Virus record (IMG/VR): IMGVR_UViG_2529293246_000006 | Reading direction: 5' to 3' (one strand) | Origin: a virus | Taxonomy: Duplodnaviria; Heunggongvirae; Uroviricota; Caudoviricetes | DNA length: 35,493 bases | Shown: positions 20,716 through 26,262 of the stretch, piece after piece | How positions within the stretch are numbered: the first letter of the stretch is position 1 | Layout of the letters: every line of letters starts with the position of its first letter | The notes under the pieces: model-generated | The model's input: only the letters and a program-made list of their open reading frames with translations | Told to the model about the DNA's origin: nothing | Databases searched by the model: none | Program-made: the position numbers and the translations under genes

Positions 20716-20966
20716 TGAAAGAATACCGCTATTCCGGCCCGGCCAGCGGCGTCACGCTGTCGGACGGAACCGAAATCCTGCTCTGGCCGGGGAAGAATGT
20801 TTCCCTGCCGGAGGAGCATGACTATGTGAAGGTACTGGTGGCGCTGAAGCATCTGACACCGGTATCTGAAGAGACTAAACCCGCCAGCACACCGGTTGTG
20901 CAGTCACCAAAGCGCAGGAACGCCGGCGACAACGATGTGAAAACGGAGGACTCCCATGGCAGCTAA
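20715..20966 (+). CDS. small hypothetical protein preceding tail sheath
   Basis: ATG at 20715 overlaps the upstream stop; 83 aa. Confidence 0.45.
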   Translation: MKEYRYSGPASGVTLSDGTEILLWPGKNVSLPEEHDYVKVLVALKHLTPVSEETKPASTPVVQSPKRRNAGDNDVKTEDSHGS

Positions 20967-22383
20967 CTATCTGCATGGCGTCGAAACCATTGAGGTGGAA
21001 AACGGTGCCCGCCCGGTAAAAACGGTGAAGTCTGCCGTCATTGGCCTGATTGGTACCGCCCCGATGGGGGACGTCAATACGCTGGTGCAGTGCCTGTCTG
21101 AGAAAGATGCAGCGGCGTTTGGCAGCCAGCTCACCGGTTTTACCATTCCGCAGGCGCTGGATGCGATCTACGACCATGGGGCAGGCACCGTTCTGGTCAT
21201 TAACGTGCTTGATCCGGCTGTGCATAAAACCGCTGTGGCCGATGAAGATGTAACGTTCGACAAGGCGACGGGCAAGGCACAGCTGGCTAATCCGGTGGTC
21301 GCGCAGCTGGTACTGAAACCGGACAGCGATGGCCAGCCTTATGTGGAAGGTCAGGACTACTCGCTTGATGCACAGACCGGAGTGATTACCAACCTTGGTA
21401 AGAGCATTGCCGCAGATGCAACGGTGAAGGCCAGCTATAACTATGCTGATCCAACTAAAGTCACCCCGGCTGATATCATCGGTGCCGTTAACGCTGCGGG
21501 CAACCGTACCGGCATGAAGCTGCTTAACGACAGCTTCAACCTGTTTGGCTACTTCGCAAAAATACTGATTGCCCCGGTCTTCTGCACCCAGAACAGCGTC
21601 TCGGTTGAGCTTATCGCCATGGCTGAGAAGCTGGGCGCGGTGACCTACATCGACGCGCCGATTGGTACCACTTTTGCGCAGGCTCTGGCGGGGCGTGGCC
21701 CGGAAGGCACCATTAACTTCAACACCAGCTCCGACCGCGTCCGTCTGTGCTACCCGCACGTCAAGGTGTACGACGCGGCCACCAACAGCGAACGGCTGGA
21801 GCCGCTGAGCCAGCGTGCTGCAGGTCTGCGTGCCAAAGTCGACCTGGACAAGGGCTACTGGTGGTCGTCCTCCAACCAGGAAATTCTGGGTATCACCGGC
21901 GTGGAGCGCCAGCTGTCGGCAATGATTGACGACCCGCAGAGCGAGGTGAACCTGCTCAACGAACAGGGCATCACCACGGTCTTCAGCAGCTACGGCAGCG
22001 GCCTGCGTCTGTGGGGCAACCGTATGGCGGCATGGCCAACGGTCACCCATATGCGCAACTTTGAGAACGTTCGCCGTACCGGTGATGTGATCAACGAGTC
22101 CCTGCGTTACTTCAGCCAGCAGTACATCGACATGCCGATTACCCAGGCGCTGATTGATGCGCTGACGGAGTCGGTCAACGCCTACGGTCGCAAGCTGATT
22201 GGCGACGGTGCGCTGCTGGGCTTCAGCTGCTGGTTTGATCCGGCCCGCAACGAAGAGACGGAGCTTGCCGCCGGTCACCTGTTGCTGAGCTACAAATACA
22301 CGCCACCACCACCGCTGGAGCGACTGACGTTTGAGACCGAGATCACCTCGGAATATCTGTTAACCCTGAAGGGGAATAGCTGA
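20956..22383 (+). CDS. tail sheath protein
   Basis: 475 aa with MAANYLHGVETIEVENG... N-terminus. Followed by the tube and tape-measure genes, the canonical contractile-tail order. Confidence 0.85.
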   Translation: MAANYLHGVETIEVENGARPVKTVKSAVIGLIGTAPMGDVNTLVQCLSEKDAAAFGSQLTGFTIPQALDAIYDHGAGTVLVINVLDPAVHKTAVADEDVTFDKATGKAQLANPVVAQLVLKPDSDGQPYVEGQDYSLDAQTGVITNLGKSIAADATVKASYNYADPTKVTPADIIGAVNAAGNRTGMKLLNDSFNLFGYFAKILIAPVFCTQNSVSVELIAMAEKLGAVTYIDAPIGTTFAQALAGRGPEGTINFNTSSDRVRLCYPHVKVYDAATNSERLEPLSQRAAGLRAKVDLDKGYWWSSSNQEILGITGVERQLSAMIDDPQSEVNLLNEQGITTVFSSYGSGLRLWGNRMAAWPTVTHMRNFENVRRTGDVINESLRYFSQQYIDMPITQALIDALTESVNAYGRKLIGDGALLGFSCWFDPARNEETELAAGHLLLSYKYTPPPPLERLTFETEITSEYLLTLKGNS

Positions 22384-22904
22384 TGGCAAAGATTGAGATC
22401 AACCGCATCACGAATGCCAACATCTACCTGGATGGCGCTAACCTGCTGGGCCGGGCCGAGGAGGTCAAACTCCCGGACGTCTCCATGACCATGCAGGAGC
22501 ATAAGGCGCTGGGGATGGTGGGCAAAGTGGAACTCCCGGCAGGCTTCGACAAGCTGGAGGGTGAGATCAAGTGGAACAGCTTTTACCGCGACGCGATGCT
22601 GTCTGCTGCGAACCCGTATAAGTCGCTGGCGCTGCAGTGCCGTTCCAGCGTCCAGCGCTACAGTTCGCAGGGGCTGATTGACGAAATCCCGCTGGTCACA
22701 TTCCTGACGATCATGTTCAAGAAGAACCCGCTGGGGACGTTCAAACAGCACGAGAACGCCGAGTTCTCTAGCAGCTTCACCTGCACGTACATCAAGCAGG
22801 TACTGGATGGTGAAGAGCTGCTGGAGCTGGACTATCTGGCCAACATCTTCCGAGTCGGCGGCGTTGACCAGTTGACTGACTACCGCATCAATATCGGGGG
22901 CTGA
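22383..22904 (+). CDS. tail tube protein
   Basis: 173 aa; ATGA overlap with the sheath stop. Confidence 0.8.
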   Translation: MAKIEINRITNANIYLDGANLLGRAEEVKLPDVSMTMQEHKALGMVGKVELPAGFDKLEGEIKWNSFYRDAMLSAANPYKSLALQCRSSVQRYSSQGLIDEIPLVTFLTIMFKKNPLGTFKQHENAEFSSSFTCTYIKQVLDGEELLELDYLANIFRVGGVDQLTDYRINIGG

Positions 22905-22906
22905 CG

Positions 22907-23188
22907 GTGACCGTCGAGATTGAAGATAAAGGCGGGAACTGTGGTTCGATTGGCATGGGAAATGGTACGTGGTTTACCATCCTTGATATTCCGGGGGTGG
23001 AAAACCTTTTTAATACCCAGAAAACCAATGACCCGATTGACTGCACCCGCTCTAAAGCACGGAAGCTCGCTGACCTGATTGAGGCATGGGAGCCACCTGA
23101 CCACTGGTTCACCGGCATCGGCAAATCTGAAGGAAAGGCGCTTCTTATCGCCTTCCTGCGTAACTGCAAAGGCTTTCGCACTCACTGA
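22907..23188 (+). CDS. hypothetical protein, moron inserted between tail tube and tail chaperone genes
   Basis: 93-aa ORF from the GTG at 22907 (GGGGG Shine-Dalgarno 7 nt upstream); an alternative ATG at 22955 gives 77 aa. Followed by its own intrinsic terminator. No recognisable motif. Confidence 0.4.
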   Translation: MTVEIEDKGGNCGSIGMGNGTWFTILDIPGVENLFNTQKTNDPIDCTRSKARKLADLIEAWEPPDHWFTGIGKSEGKALLIAFLRNCKGFRTH

Positions 23189-23194
23189 TATCAC

Positions 23195-23218
23195 AGGGGC
23201 TTCGGCCCCTTTCTTCTT
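23195..23218 (+). terminator. rho-independent terminator after the moron
   Basis: AGGGGC-TTCG-GCCCCT hairpin (23195-23210) followed by TTCTTCTT. Confidence 0.6.
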
Positions 23219-23286
23219 AATCCCCTTTAATATCCGTCACGTCCACCTCCAGACATACTGCTCTGAACTTACACAGGAGCACGATC

Positions 23287-23601
23287 ATGTCACAGACCCA
23301 ATCCGATACTTTTAAGCTGTCTTACCCCTTCACCACCGCAGCAGGCACCAGAGTTGAGCAGGTTGAACTGAAACGCCTGACGGTCAAAGACCTGAAGCAG
23401 GTGCGCAAAATCAGTAAAGACCCGGCTGACTGGGACGAACCGCTCATTGCCCGTAGCACCGGTATTCTCCCCGAAGACCTCGATAACATGGATCTTGCCG
23501 ATTACATGGAGCTGCAGAAACGATTTCAGCAAGTCACTGGGCTGGGCAAGAGCGACGAAAACGCTGATGCAGGCGCAGGGGCTGCTGGCGAGGTGGTTTA
23601 G
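23287..23601 (+). CDS. tail assembly chaperone (P2 E / Mu gp41-like)
   Basis: 104 aa with an AGGAG Shine-Dalgarno, between the tube and tape-measure genes. An overlapping downstream ORF sits in another frame. Confidence 0.6.
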   Translation: MSQTQSDTFKLSYPFTTAAGTRVEQVELKRLTVKDLKQVRKISKDPADWDEPLIARSTGILPEDLDNMDLADYMELQKRFQQVTGLGKSDENADAGAGAAGEVV

Positions 23602-23704
23602 ATTTCAGCCGGGGGAGATTGATGCCCTCGATACTGACGATCTGGAGATGTGGCTGGAGCAGGCTGAAGAGCAAATCAAAAGCGAGTTCGGCGACAATCA
23701 GTAA
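23447..23704 (+). other. +1-frame overlapping ORF: probable frameshift extension of the tail chaperone
   Basis: ORF in the +1 frame overlaps the 3' part of the chaperone gene and runs 103 nt beyond its TAG (23599-23601), ending ...EIDALDTDDLEMWLEQAEEQIKSEFGDNQ. The -1 frame hits a stop quickly. Slip site not identified. Confidence 0.45.
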
Positions 23705-23796
23705 CGACTCATCACTTAACAGCCGCCCCTCGCGGCTGTTCTGCATGGCTCTCAGACATTTTCCTTCCGTTTTTCCGCTTTCAGAGGATAACAACC

Positions 23797-26262
23797 GTGG
23801 CCAGTGAATTTTCAGTCGGCGTCATTATTGGCGGCATTGTCGGAAGCAGCTTCCGCTCAGCCGTCAGTGGCACCCGACGCGCCCTAGATTCCCTGGGCGA
23901 TACATCGCGCCGCCTGCAGGAACGCCAGAATGCCTTAACTCGTGCAACTGAACGTTATGGCCAGTTAGGCTCTTCCCGGATGCAGCGCCTCAACAGCGAA
24001 CTGCTGCGGGTAAGCCGCACAATGGAGCAAATTGAACGCCAGCAGCGCCGTCTGTCAGCAGTATCAGCCACCAGTGACGCGCTGAAAGCTAACCGCATGG
24101 CGCTCTATGGCCAGGGAGCAGAGACTTATGGTATCGCCCGAACGCTGGGCGCACCGGTCATGGCCTCTGTCAAACAATATTCATCGTTTGAATCCCAGCT
24201 ACGCGATATCAGTGTCACCGGTGATCTGGATTCAAGGCAGGAACAGGCCATCGGTACTGCCATTCGTCGGGCATCCCTGCAGGTCAATCAGCTCCAGGAA
24301 TCTCTGTTGAGCGGCGTTGGTCAACTGGTTGCCGATGGCATGAATCCGCAGCAGGCAGCGACCTTTGCCGGGATGCTCGGTAAAGCGGCCACGGCCACCA
24401 AAGCAGATATGACTGACCTCGCAAAAATGACCTATGCCTTTAGCGATGCGCTGAAAATTACCGATGCCAAAGAGCTGGAGCAGGCGTTTGGGATTGCGGC
24501 AACCGGGGCCAAGCTAGGCTCGTTTGAGCTGAAGGATATGGCGAAAGCGTTACCCGGTATGGCCAAAGCCTTCGCTGCACGTGGTATTTACGGCAAAGAC
24601 GCCATAACCCAGATCGTAGCCAGTCTGGAAGTGGGTAAAGGCAGCGGCTCAGCGGAAGAGGCCGTCACCAATATGTCAAACTGGCTGGCGGCAATGGGAC
24701 GCGGAGATACCACGCAGAAATACGCTAAGGCTGGCGTGGATTACCAGGGATCAATGCAAAATTATGTAGCCCAGGGGTTCTCTCAATATGAAGCCTCCCT
24801 GATGATTGCCAACCGGTTTATCGACGGTAAAGGCAAGGCATTTGTGCAGCAATGGAAGGCGGCAGGCTCAAGAGGCGATCAGGAAGGCCAGCAGAGGCTG
24901 ATGGAGTCCTTCGGACTGGCGGAAGTCTTTACCGATATCCAGACCGTGAACCATCTACTGTCTATGCGTCAGGGCTGGGATAAGTACCAATCTAACAAGC
25001 AGGAAATGAACACTCCCTCTGCAATGTCTACGCTGGACAAGGATGCAGCGAAACAAAATGATACGCTCGAAGGACGTTGGCGCAGAACGCAGATTGGGTT
25101 TAACGACTCGGCCATTAGCATCGGAGAATCATTACGTCCGGCGTTGATCCAGCTGGGGGAAACATTCATCCCCTTAATGAACAGCGTTGGAAAATGGATT
25201 GCGGCTAATCCGCAACTCGTGAGCGGCACAATTCAAGTGATTGGCGCATTACTTGCGTTCAAGATGGCAACCATCGGCCTCAAGCTCGGGCTGAATCTCC
25301 TTATTTCACCTTTCGTCAACGTCTGGAAAAATGCCGTGCTCCTGCGGGCCAACTGGCTTCGCCTGACACTCGCGCTGGGTGAAGGCGGCAAACTTCGCTG
25401 GCTGGTGACCGGCTTCAGCGCCGTCGCCAGAGGAGCCAGAACACTGGGTGGTGTGCTGTCAGGTGGGCTGGTTCGCGGCATTATGATCGCCGGGCGTGCC
25501 GTTCTCTGGATTGGGCGGGCATTGCTGATGAATCCCATTGGTCTTGCTATCACCGCCGTCGCGGCGGCGGCTTATCTTATTTATCGTAACTGGGGGGCTG
25601 TCAGCAGTTGGTTCAAACAGCGCTGGGCTGACATTAAAGAGGCTTTTAACGGCGGTATCGTGGGGATTGGTAAACTGCTGATTAACTGGTCGCCGGTTGG
25701 TCTGCTCTATAAAGCCTTTGCGGCTGCGCTGAAATATCTCGGCGTTGATCTGCCCGCGAAGTTCACTGACTTCGGTGGCCATCTTATCGACGGGCTGATA
25801 AACGGCATCAAAAACAAATGGGAGTCGCTCAAAACCACCGTCACAGATATGGGTGACAGTGTCGGCGGCTGGTTCAAGGAAAAGCTGGGTATCCATTCGC
25901 CGAGCCGCGTGTTTATGGGCTTTGGTGACAACATCGCGCAGGGTGCCGCTATCGGCCTGCAGCGTACCACACCACTGGCAGCGCTCGCCGGACAACGCCT
26001 GGCAACAGAGATGACTCCCGATGTTCCCCGTATCCCGTCGCCGGAAATCATGGCTGCGGGATATTCAGGTCGTGGCGCAGTTGCAACTGGCGGCGGAACA
26101 TCTGGCGGTATCCAGGTCAGCTTTAATCCTCAGTTTTTCCTCAATGGCAAAGAAACCGCAGCGCCTGCCGGACTGACCGGCGCACTGAATATGAGCCTGC
26201 ATGAACTGGAGAAAATGCTGGAGCGTCTGCTGGCTCAGAAACAACGTCGGGGGTACGAATAA
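23797..26262 (+). CDS. tail tape measure protein
   Basis: 821 aa. Largely alpha-helical N-terminal two thirds, hydrophobic segments and a Gly-rich C-terminus. GTG start after an AGAGGA Shine-Dalgarno. Confidence 0.85.
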   Translation: MASEFSVGVIIGGIVGSSFRSAVSGTRRALDSLGDTSRRLQERQNALTRATERYGQLGSSRMQRLNSELLRVSRTMEQIERQQRRLSAVSATSDALKANRMALYGQGAETYGIARTLGAPVMASVKQYSSFESQLRDISVTGDLDSRQEQAIGTAIRRASLQVNQLQESLLSGVGQLVADGMNPQQAATFAGMLGKAATATKADMTDLAKMTYAFSDALKITDAKELEQAFGIAATGAKLGSFELKDMAKALPGMAKAFAARGIYGKDAITQIVASLEVGKGSGSAEEAVTNMSNWLAAMGRGDTTQKYAKAGVDYQGSMQNYVAQGFSQYEASLMIANRFIDGKGKAFVQQWKAAGSRGDQEGQQRLMESFGLAEVFTDIQTVNHLLSMRQGWDKYQSNKQEMNTPSAMSTLDKDAAKQNDTLEGRWRRTQIGFNDSAISIGESLRPALIQLGETFIPLMNSVGKWIAANPQLVSGTIQVIGALLAFKMATIGLKLGLNLLISPFVNVWKNAVLLRANWLRLTLALGEGGKLRWLVTGFSAVARGARTLGGVLSGGLVRGIMIAGRAVLWIGRALLMNPIGLAITAVAAAAYLIYRNWGAVSSWFKQRWADIKEAFNGGIVGIGKLLINWSPVGLLYKAFAAALKYLGVDLPAKFTDFGGHLIDGLINGIKNKWESLKTTVTDMGDSVGGWFKEKLGIHSPSRVFMGFGDNIAQGAAIGLQRTTPLAALAGQRLATEMTPDVPRIPSPEIMAAGYSGRGAVATGGGTSGGIQVSFNPQFFLNGKETAAPAGLTGALNMSLHELEKMLERLLAQKQRRGYE

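Follow-up and report, generated by a model that had tools for sequence, protein, structure and literature searches.

The window analysed here, the whole 35,493-nucleotide stretch of the IMG/VR virus record IMGVR_UViG_2529293246_000006, comprises the tail module of a BcepMu-like (Bcepmuvirus-type) enterobacterial prophage, and its tail assembly chaperone gene was found to consist of two overlapping reading frames that are highly likely to be joined by a programmed +1 frameshift. That tail chaperone genes undergo programmed frameshifting is textbook knowledge for long-tailed phages, among which the feature is conserved; to our knowledge, nearly all of the documented cases are -1 frameshifts.

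The zero-frame open reading frame (ORF) of the chaperone gene begins with an ATG and encodes 104 amino acids on the plus strand (23287..23601). It matches PF10109 (Phage_TAC_7) over residues 8-84 with E=7e-23 and a score of 80.9 bits against a cutoff of 25, a family that is also matched by P2 E, and is named 'phage tail assembly protein' in RefSeq. This ORF presumably yields the short, abundant product, equivalent to P2 gpE or lambda gpG. It lies between the tail tube and tape measure genes. As stated in the original prediction, it ends at the TAG at 23599-23601, with the zero-frame end reading GTG GTT TAG A followed by AGA, and it is overlapped by a +1 frame that is open up to the TAA at 23702-23704. 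The last upstream stop of the latter frame is located at 23393-23395, so that it is open from 23396, and its first start-type codon is the TTG at 23447. Two overlapping ORFs between the tube and tape measure genes correspond to the arrangement known from lambda G/GT. In a single sequence, an open +1 frame of 59 codons is insignificant when taken alone (about 6% expected by our estimate).

Similarity to P2 E' was found in the +1 frame. A GpE'-like domain, probably homologous to P2 E' (PF06528; 23585..23683, plus strand) was matched by residues 47-79 of the +1 ORF with E=0.023. The window ORF alone scored 14.6-16.6 bits, which is under the gathering cutoff of 23, while 17 of 23 diverse family members matched PF06528, the best with E=6e-6. 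Alignment of a profile of the homologues with P2 E' using hhalign gave a probability of 86% (E=5e-6), and the +1 ORF also matched phrog_8286 (E=3e-32); no NCBIfam match was obtained for either the fusion or the E' ORF. The peptide conserved in the +1 frame has the form FxxxxGW...LLARWFRFQPGEID.

The frame in which this region is read was investigated using a comparison set of 170 related loci, 102 of them unique, from Enterobacterales, Burkholderia BcepMu, Ralstonia and Pseudomonas clades. The set comprised 80 loci from IMG/VR, 42 from GTDB genomes, 40 BcepMu, Pseudomonas and Ralstonia chaperone relatives, and GenBank phages. Substitutions were counted by parsimony on a tree of 55 unique close relatives and assigned to zero-frame codon positions 1, 2 and 3. 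Upstream of 23524 the counts were 116, 71 and 375, zero-frame third positions thus being dominant. Between 23527 and 23550 they were 22, 3 and 21, a pattern of dual coding, and between 23551 and 23574 they were 32, 19 and 16, favouring +1 third positions under weak constraint. Changes at 23575-23598 fell exclusively on +1 third positions (24, 0 and 0), and those at 23602-23697 followed the +1 frame as well (65, 14 and 17). The ratio of position 1 to position 3 therefore switched directly after the TTT codon at 23524-23526, from 116:375 to 22:21 and then to 24:0. This phase of substitution by region indicates that the +1 frame is read tens of nucleotides upstream of the TAG, and that it is under purifying selection from about 23528, some 70 nucleotides before the zero-frame stop. 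Conservation of the frame across the 102 unique sequences and four divergent clades, together with its +1-phase substitutions, is decisive in placing it beyond chance expectation.

On this basis the +1-frame continuation extends over 58 codons plus TAA on the plus strand (23528..23704), as judged by its open frame, +1-phase substitutions and conserved peptide. Its first part, the dual-coding overlap (23528..23598, plus strand), would encode the C-terminal tail of the short product in the zero frame and the linker of a long product in the +1 frame. A widespread 90-amino-acid chaperone variant (P0045), observed in 914 contigs, carries a stop at the equivalent of 23557 (as in locus L051); the stop arises through a zero-frame change of CAG to TAG that is silent when read in the +1 frame (ACC to ACT). 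The change shortens the low-complexity tail of the short product and leaves the long product untouched.

The more usual -1 direction had been set aside in the original prediction on account of stop codons, and this argument held only in part. All 56 unique close relatives have the -1-frame TGA at 23565..23567 (plus strand). Past this codon, however, the -1 frame of the window is open for 80 codons (23568-23807), spanning the E' region and running into the start of the tape measure gene, and stop codons alone would therefore permit a -1 slip within the last 11 codons of the chaperone ORF. Two observations excluded such a slip instead: all 24 inferred changes at 23575-23598 are at +1 third positions, which correspond to second positions of the -1 frame, and it is the +1 frame that carries the GpE'-like domain. 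Substitutions in the -1 frame over 23568-23807 showed no phase indicative of coding constraint, and relatives interrupt it at 23676 or 23716. The proposal that the chaperone gene makes two products, with the long form arising through +1 rather than -1 frameshifting, was strongly supported by the comparative evidence.

Alignment of the junction across relatives, which the original prediction had suggested as a means of finding a conserved slippery motif, revealed TTT followed by C at Phe80 in 170/170 loci. The site is likely to be CGA_UUU_C, a proposed +1 slip cassette on the plus strand at 23521..23527 that consists of Arg79 (23521-23523), Phe80 (23524-23526) and the following C (23527), with Phe80 sitting at the end of the TAC_7 domain. 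The same TTT and C are also found in Pseudomonas phage Bise (GCA_TTT_CAA) and in loci L179 and L180. Among the close relatives no change was inferred in TTT and only one in CGA. Across the large ORFs, the share of TTT among Phe codons was 49%, 30%, 15% and 15% in the four clades, and a conserved Phe elsewhere in the chaperone gene, used as a control, alternated between TTC and TTT in the enteric sequences (31:12). The rare codon CGA preceded TTT in 65/67 unique enteric sequences and in all 16 of the Ralstonia type, while a control invariant Arg was encoded by CGA in 1/55.

The position of the shift could be bounded from both sides. Upstream, 21 unique sequences contain a +1-frame stop four codons before TTT. 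Downstream, the zero frame closes 8 codons past Phe80 in L179, 11 codons past it in the 90-amino-acid type and 15 codons past it in L124-L129. A +1-frame Trp is located within eight residues of the Phe in 101 of the 102 unique sequences; in the window it is the TGG at 23543..23545 (plus strand), six codons past Phe80. The spacing from TTT to this Trp is three codons in the BcepMu and Pseudomonas clades, four in the Ralstonia type and six in the enterics, and the residue is invariant in an alignment of 23 diverse peptides despite clade-specific indels. Within these bounds TTT_C was the sole slippery element common to all. The influenza PA-X site is likewise characterised by a UUU_C that lies in phase where the +1 ORF has its 5' end and that is kept against synonymous change.

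Taken together, these observations suggest that the prophage very probably makes a longer tail chaperone through +1 slippage of some ribosomes at CGA-UUU-C. Most ribosomes would read 23287-23601 and release the 104-amino-acid TAC_7 chaperone, whereas a minority would shift into the +1 frame at CGA_UUU_C (23521-23527). In doing so, tRNA-Phe would re-pair from UUU (23524-23526) to UUC (23525-23527), the next codon would be AGC at 23528-23530, and translation would end at the TAA at 23702-23704. The predicted fusion, join(23287..23526, 23528..23704), is 138 amino acids long and has the sequence ...LQKRF-SKSLGWARATKTLMQAQGLLARWFRFQPGEIDALDTDDLEMWLEQAEEQIKSEFGDNQ at the junction; it would consist of the TAC_7 domain, an 18-residue linker starting S-K-S-L-G-W, and the P2 GpE'-like domain. 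The analogous pairs lambda gpG/gpGT and P2 E/E+E' suggest that the short form would serve as a coat for the tape measure protein, that the rare long form would bring in tube subunits, and that the frequency of frameshifting would set the ratio of short to long product. We infer ribosomal slippage as the process that joins the frames, and likewise its efficiency and the role of the products in assembly.

The only anticodon of tRNA-Phe, GAA, pairs with UUC in Watson-Crick fashion and with UUU by a G:U wobble, which makes re-pairing from UUU to UUC in the +1 direction favourable. According to Schwartz and Curran in 1997, UUU-pyrimidine sites are reportedly prone to +1 slippage in E. coli. The preceding CGA would be read by an inosine-containing tRNA-Arg via an I:A wobble, and may have an enhancing role; this would probably operate either through a weakly held tRNA in the exit (E) site or, in the manner of Ty3, through a 'special' tRNA in the peptidyl (P) site that admits Phe-tRNA on the +1 UUC, two routes that would yield an identical protein. 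CGA can replace GCG at the Ty3 +1 site (Atkins et al. review, PMC5009743), and P-site +1 slippage on UUU_C has been shown by mass spectrometry for the influenza PA-X site UCC_UUU_CGU (PMC3498833). Tailed phages are described as using -1, -2 or +1 frameshifts at the tail chaperone gene (PMC5009743), with frequencies of 2.2% in Mu (PMC3498833) and about 1 in 30 in lambda (PMC5009743). Neither a conserved RNA structure nor a Shine-Dalgarno-like stimulator was found at the present site, and its aminoacyl (A) site codon is the common CAG in the enterics; a low efficiency would be expected, consistent with these frequencies.

Several observations weigh against this interpretation. The codon before UUU is not universal, the site being UCC or GCC_UUU_CGC in the BcepMu clade and GUG_UUU_CGG in the Pseudomonas clade. 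Phe80 is also invariant at the protein level, so that its conservation must be in part protein-driven, which leaves the choice of TTT over TTC and the identity of the next C unexplained. As the loci are phylogenetically related, the figure of 170/170 overstates the number of independent observations; when a single observation is counted per clade, the probability estimated by us from TTT usage is about 0.003. In 55/67 enterics UUU is followed in the zero frame by CAG, which as judged by codon usage is a common A-site codon, and the classical 'hungry A-site' stimulus would therefore be missing there; elsewhere this codon is CGC, CGG or CGT (BcepMu and Pseudomonas clades) or CTG (Ralstonia type). 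No conserved downstream RNA structure was found in the enterics (alifold -1.1 kcal/mol), a hairpin at 23528-23586 (z=-2.2) being confined to the window and not conserved, and no Shine-Dalgarno-like stimulator was found at the site. Finally, the RefSeq Prokaryotic Genome Annotation Pipeline (PGAP) annotates exactly the coding sequence 23567..23704 (plus strand; 668-805 in L172) as a separate 45-amino-acid 'GpE family phage tail protein' (WP_001148841.1), and the window does contain an ATG at 23567.

This annotation corresponds to a different explanation, namely that the +1 ORF is a gene in its own right, initiated at ATG 23567 and encoding a GpE-family protein that acts in trans, and the BcepMu record likewise lists its +1 ORF, gp42, as a separate gene. 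A downstream ORF with a ribosome-binding site and start of its own had been named in the original prediction as one of two findings that together would speak against a frameshift, and neither a conserved start nor a conserved Shine-Dalgarno sequence was found for the +1 ORF across 101 unique relatives. The ATG at 23567 is replaced by ACG in many relatives and elsewhere by ATT or AAA, six changes being inferred at 23568; 9/66 enteric and 3/6 Pseudomonas-type unique sequences contain none of ATG, GTG and TTG in the stretch from the Phe to the E' core; and a start with an upstream Shine-Dalgarno-like sequence was present in just 18 of the 101, at varying positions. Furthermore, the +1-phase selection and the invariant Trp extend 24-40 nucleotides upstream of ATG 23567, independent initiation would leave the fixed TTT_C and the CGA unexplained, and the homologous E' of P2 is, according to its annotation, made solely as a frameshift fusion. 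Independent initiation was consequently considered improbable, and the separate 45-amino-acid gene of RefSeq is probably an annotation error repeated systematically in hundreds of E. coli genomes. It is also highly improbable that transcriptional slippage or editing joins the frames, or that the +1 ORF is an unexpressed relic with the chaperone acting alone. KS10, a Mu-like Burkholderia phage, was reported without a detectable frameshift site (PMC2628397), and assorted 138-amino-acid in-frame fusions exist in the database. However, these fusions are joined at many differing homopolymers and resemble assembly or sequencing indels, so they were rejected as uninformative on the junction. The interval contains no homopolymer longer than 3-5 nucleotides on which RNA polymerase would be prone to slip, the TTT run being just three, and a relic was ruled out because of the strong +1-phase purifying selection over more than 100 sequences.

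A +1 slip at a position other than TTT_C was regarded as unlikely, the candidates being GGG_C (23539-23542), GGG_G (23578-23581) and GTT_TAG_A (23596-23602). In favour of the G runs, Mu slips on such a run (CGG_GGG_CGA), GGG_G permits perfect re-pairing, and GGG at 23539-23541 shows no inferred change among the close relatives, with variation at 23538 being synonymous in the zero frame and L/R/Q in the +1 frame and all four bases occurring at 23542 (GGN in the +1 frame). GGG_C is, however, missing from the non-enteric clades and from L085, L119, L122 and L180, which have AGC, GGC or GCT at 23539 and still keep the Trp and E', and in the BcepMu and Pseudomonas clades the Trp lies three codons past TTT with no G run between them. 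GGG_G was the first candidate to emerge, from an alignment of four sequences; its fourth base is G, C, T or A among relatives, a variation that is silent in the +1 frame and yields A, P, S or T in the zero frame. The zero frame closes upstream of both 23578 and 23599 in several lineages, namely the 90-amino-acid type, L124-L129 and L179. The original prediction had put forward, without confidence, a prfB-like slip at GTT_TAG_A with the rare AGA following. This was refuted because the zero-frame stops of relatives shift, occurring as early as 8 codons past Phe80 in L179, and because +1 selection starts far upstream. The TAG itself is unconserved, being CCG or CAG in the 111-amino-acid type, and zero-frame stops occur variously at 23557, 23599, 23614 (other relatives) and 23620 (the 111-amino-acid type). 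The AGA is CGG or AGG in relatives, a +1-synonymous difference, and the GpE' match already starts at 23585, ahead of the TAG. Of the hallmarks of prfB, an in-frame stop after the shift codon and a Shine-Dalgarno sequence about 3 nucleotides upstream, the stop is unconserved here and the Shine-Dalgarno sequence is absent. A Mu-like -2 slip was also rejected, no -2 re-pairing being possible at UUU.

Slippage at CGA_UUU_C was then compared with known systems. As in P2 gpE/E+E', the order of domains is TAC_7, a linker of about 20 residues and GpE', the genes occupy the same place between tube and tape measure genes, and the slip would occur on a UUU Phe codon at the end of TAC_7, within three residues of the aligned position. 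The long form of P2 is annotated as a frameshift fusion, E+E' being 142 amino acids in length as opposed to the 138 predicted here. Unlike P2, in which the shift is -1 at GGT_TTT_TTG, the proposed shift is +1, and there is neither a tandem-slippery T_TTT_TTG heptanucleotide nor an E' in the -1 frame. Extensions in the -1 frame were found in other TAC_7 chaperones, namely those of Wolbachia WO (GGT_TTT_TTG), Vibrio phage Valp1 (G_GGT_TTT_A) and Pasteurella AFS-2018a. The -1 Phe codon of P2, Wolbachia WO and Valp1 lies three residues downstream in the alignment, suggesting that the direction of slippage has changed within the TAC_7 family while its position has remained almost fixed. No frameshift is annotated in the records of Valp1, Wolbachia WO, AFS-2018a or Bise (L177, L178, L088 and L176), the extension being in the +1 frame in Bise.

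The gp41 of Mu is likewise a tail chaperone of a myophage with an extension in the +1/-2 frame, and the head genes of the present phage group are Mu-like. A -2 frameshift at CGG_GGG_CGA has been described for Mu gp41 (Xu, Hendrix & Duda 2004, as cited in PMC5009743 and PMC3498833). Unlike the window protein, which has no match to PF23746 (Gp41_Mu), Mu gp41 belongs to that family (E=9e-35) and scores only marginally against TAC_7; moreover, the run of five G residues in Mu permits -2 re-pairing, whereas the G runs here (23539 and 23578) are unconserved or in the wrong phase. The resemblance to influenza PA-X (UCC_UUU_CGU) lies in a UUU_C of the same phase at the 5' end of a +1 ORF, with UUU kept against synonymous change, and the BcepMu clade has UCC_UUU_CGC. 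The present site differs in being read by bacterial ribosomes, in belonging to a gene of unrelated identity and function, in an enteric A-site CAG that is not rare, and in a preceding codon that is mostly CGA. With E. coli prfB (RF2; CUU_UGA with an upstream Shine-Dalgarno sequence) it would share the +1 direction, bacterial translation and P-site re-pairing, but the zero-frame TAG is neither conserved nor located at the shift. No earlier description of a CGA_UUU_C site was found in the literature covered, which did not include Xu et al. (2004) and Summer et al. (2004), and priority is therefore uncertain.

In BcepMu itself (NC_005882) the homologous genes are gp41, a TAC_7 chaperone, and gp42, a +1 ORF with an E'-like domain. 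The record (L131, 7603-8364) describes gp42 as the analogue of lambda G and gp43 as its slippage product, the link between gp41 and gp42 being unannotated. The comparison supports a putative +1 fusion of gp41 with gp42 at UCC_UUU_CGC. The gp43 frame is the same as that of gp41. Indels were observed in a few further loci: in Apirhabdus apintestini (L110; CP138906.1, ~1180-1720) a deletion of one nucleotide about four codons upstream of TTT_C joins the TAC_7 and E' frames, and this fused-only form may represent a sequencing error, a pseudogene or a natural fused variant, while in Erwinia tracheiphila (L081 and L099) indels are located within the overlap.

The surrounding genes are those of a tail module. 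The sheath gene (20956-22383) is followed by the tail tube gene (22383-22904, plus strand; PF04985, E=1e-54), and the tape measure protein gene lies downstream of the chaperone (23797-26262, plus strand; PF10145, E=4e-16; annotated as tape measure in relatives); gpU-, gpX- and gpD-like genes are also present. Between the tube and chaperone genes there is a 93-amino-acid ORF (22907-23188) with a weak DUF7739 match (E=0.003), which is kept as a hypothetical protein in KP12 and PhiKM and is replaced by a Phage_gp49_66 ORF in L180-type relatives. At the DNA level near-identical sequence is found in Klebsiella phage KP12 (99.8%), Escherichia phage Phi06_2974 B (95.5%) and PhiKM (86%; classified as Bcepmuvirus); related regions were detected in 637 of 5,426 complete E. 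coli genomes, and also exist in phages of Burkholderia, Ralstonia and Pseudomonas. An intrinsic-terminator-like hairpin, AGGGGC-TTCG-GCCCCT followed by TTCTTCTT, is located at 23195-23220, between the 93-amino-acid ORF and the chaperone start and within what is presumed to be a single late tail operon, where it could act as an attenuator or RNA-stability element. A second hairpin, CAGCCGC-CCCT-GCGGCTG followed by TTCTG, lies at 23730-23752, in the gap that separates the E' stop codon from the tape measure gene. KP12, Phi06_2974 B and PhiKM share its stem but vary in loop and flanks, and the hairpin was not called in a terminator scan because of its weak T tail.

The finding would mean that a well-sampled phage lineage arrives at the two chaperone proteins known from the -1 cases through a +1 shift on a minimal UUU_C signal. 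More broadly, it is tentatively proposed, at somewhat less than even confidence, that CGA_UUU_C, or more generally NNN_UUU_C, is an unrecognised conserved prokaryotic +1 signal that operates without a stop codon, Shine-Dalgarno sequence or downstream structure, that the direction of slippage switches between -1 and +1, and that the E' ORFs are mis-annotated. If true, this would be a bacterial counterpart of influenza PA-X and Ty3-type sites, and hundreds of prophages of E. coli, Salmonella, Burkholderia and Pseudomonas would have their E' ORFs wrongly annotated as separate genes. Confirmation of the shift would provide a natural bacterial example of PA-X-type +1 frameshifting and a clean system for studying the effect of the I:A-wobble codon CGA on frame maintenance, and would correct both the RefSeq annotation and the pairing given for BcepMu, which is relevant to work on prophages, tailocins and phage engineering. 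It would also demonstrate that slippage can reverse direction in a single chaperone family at a near-fixed position.

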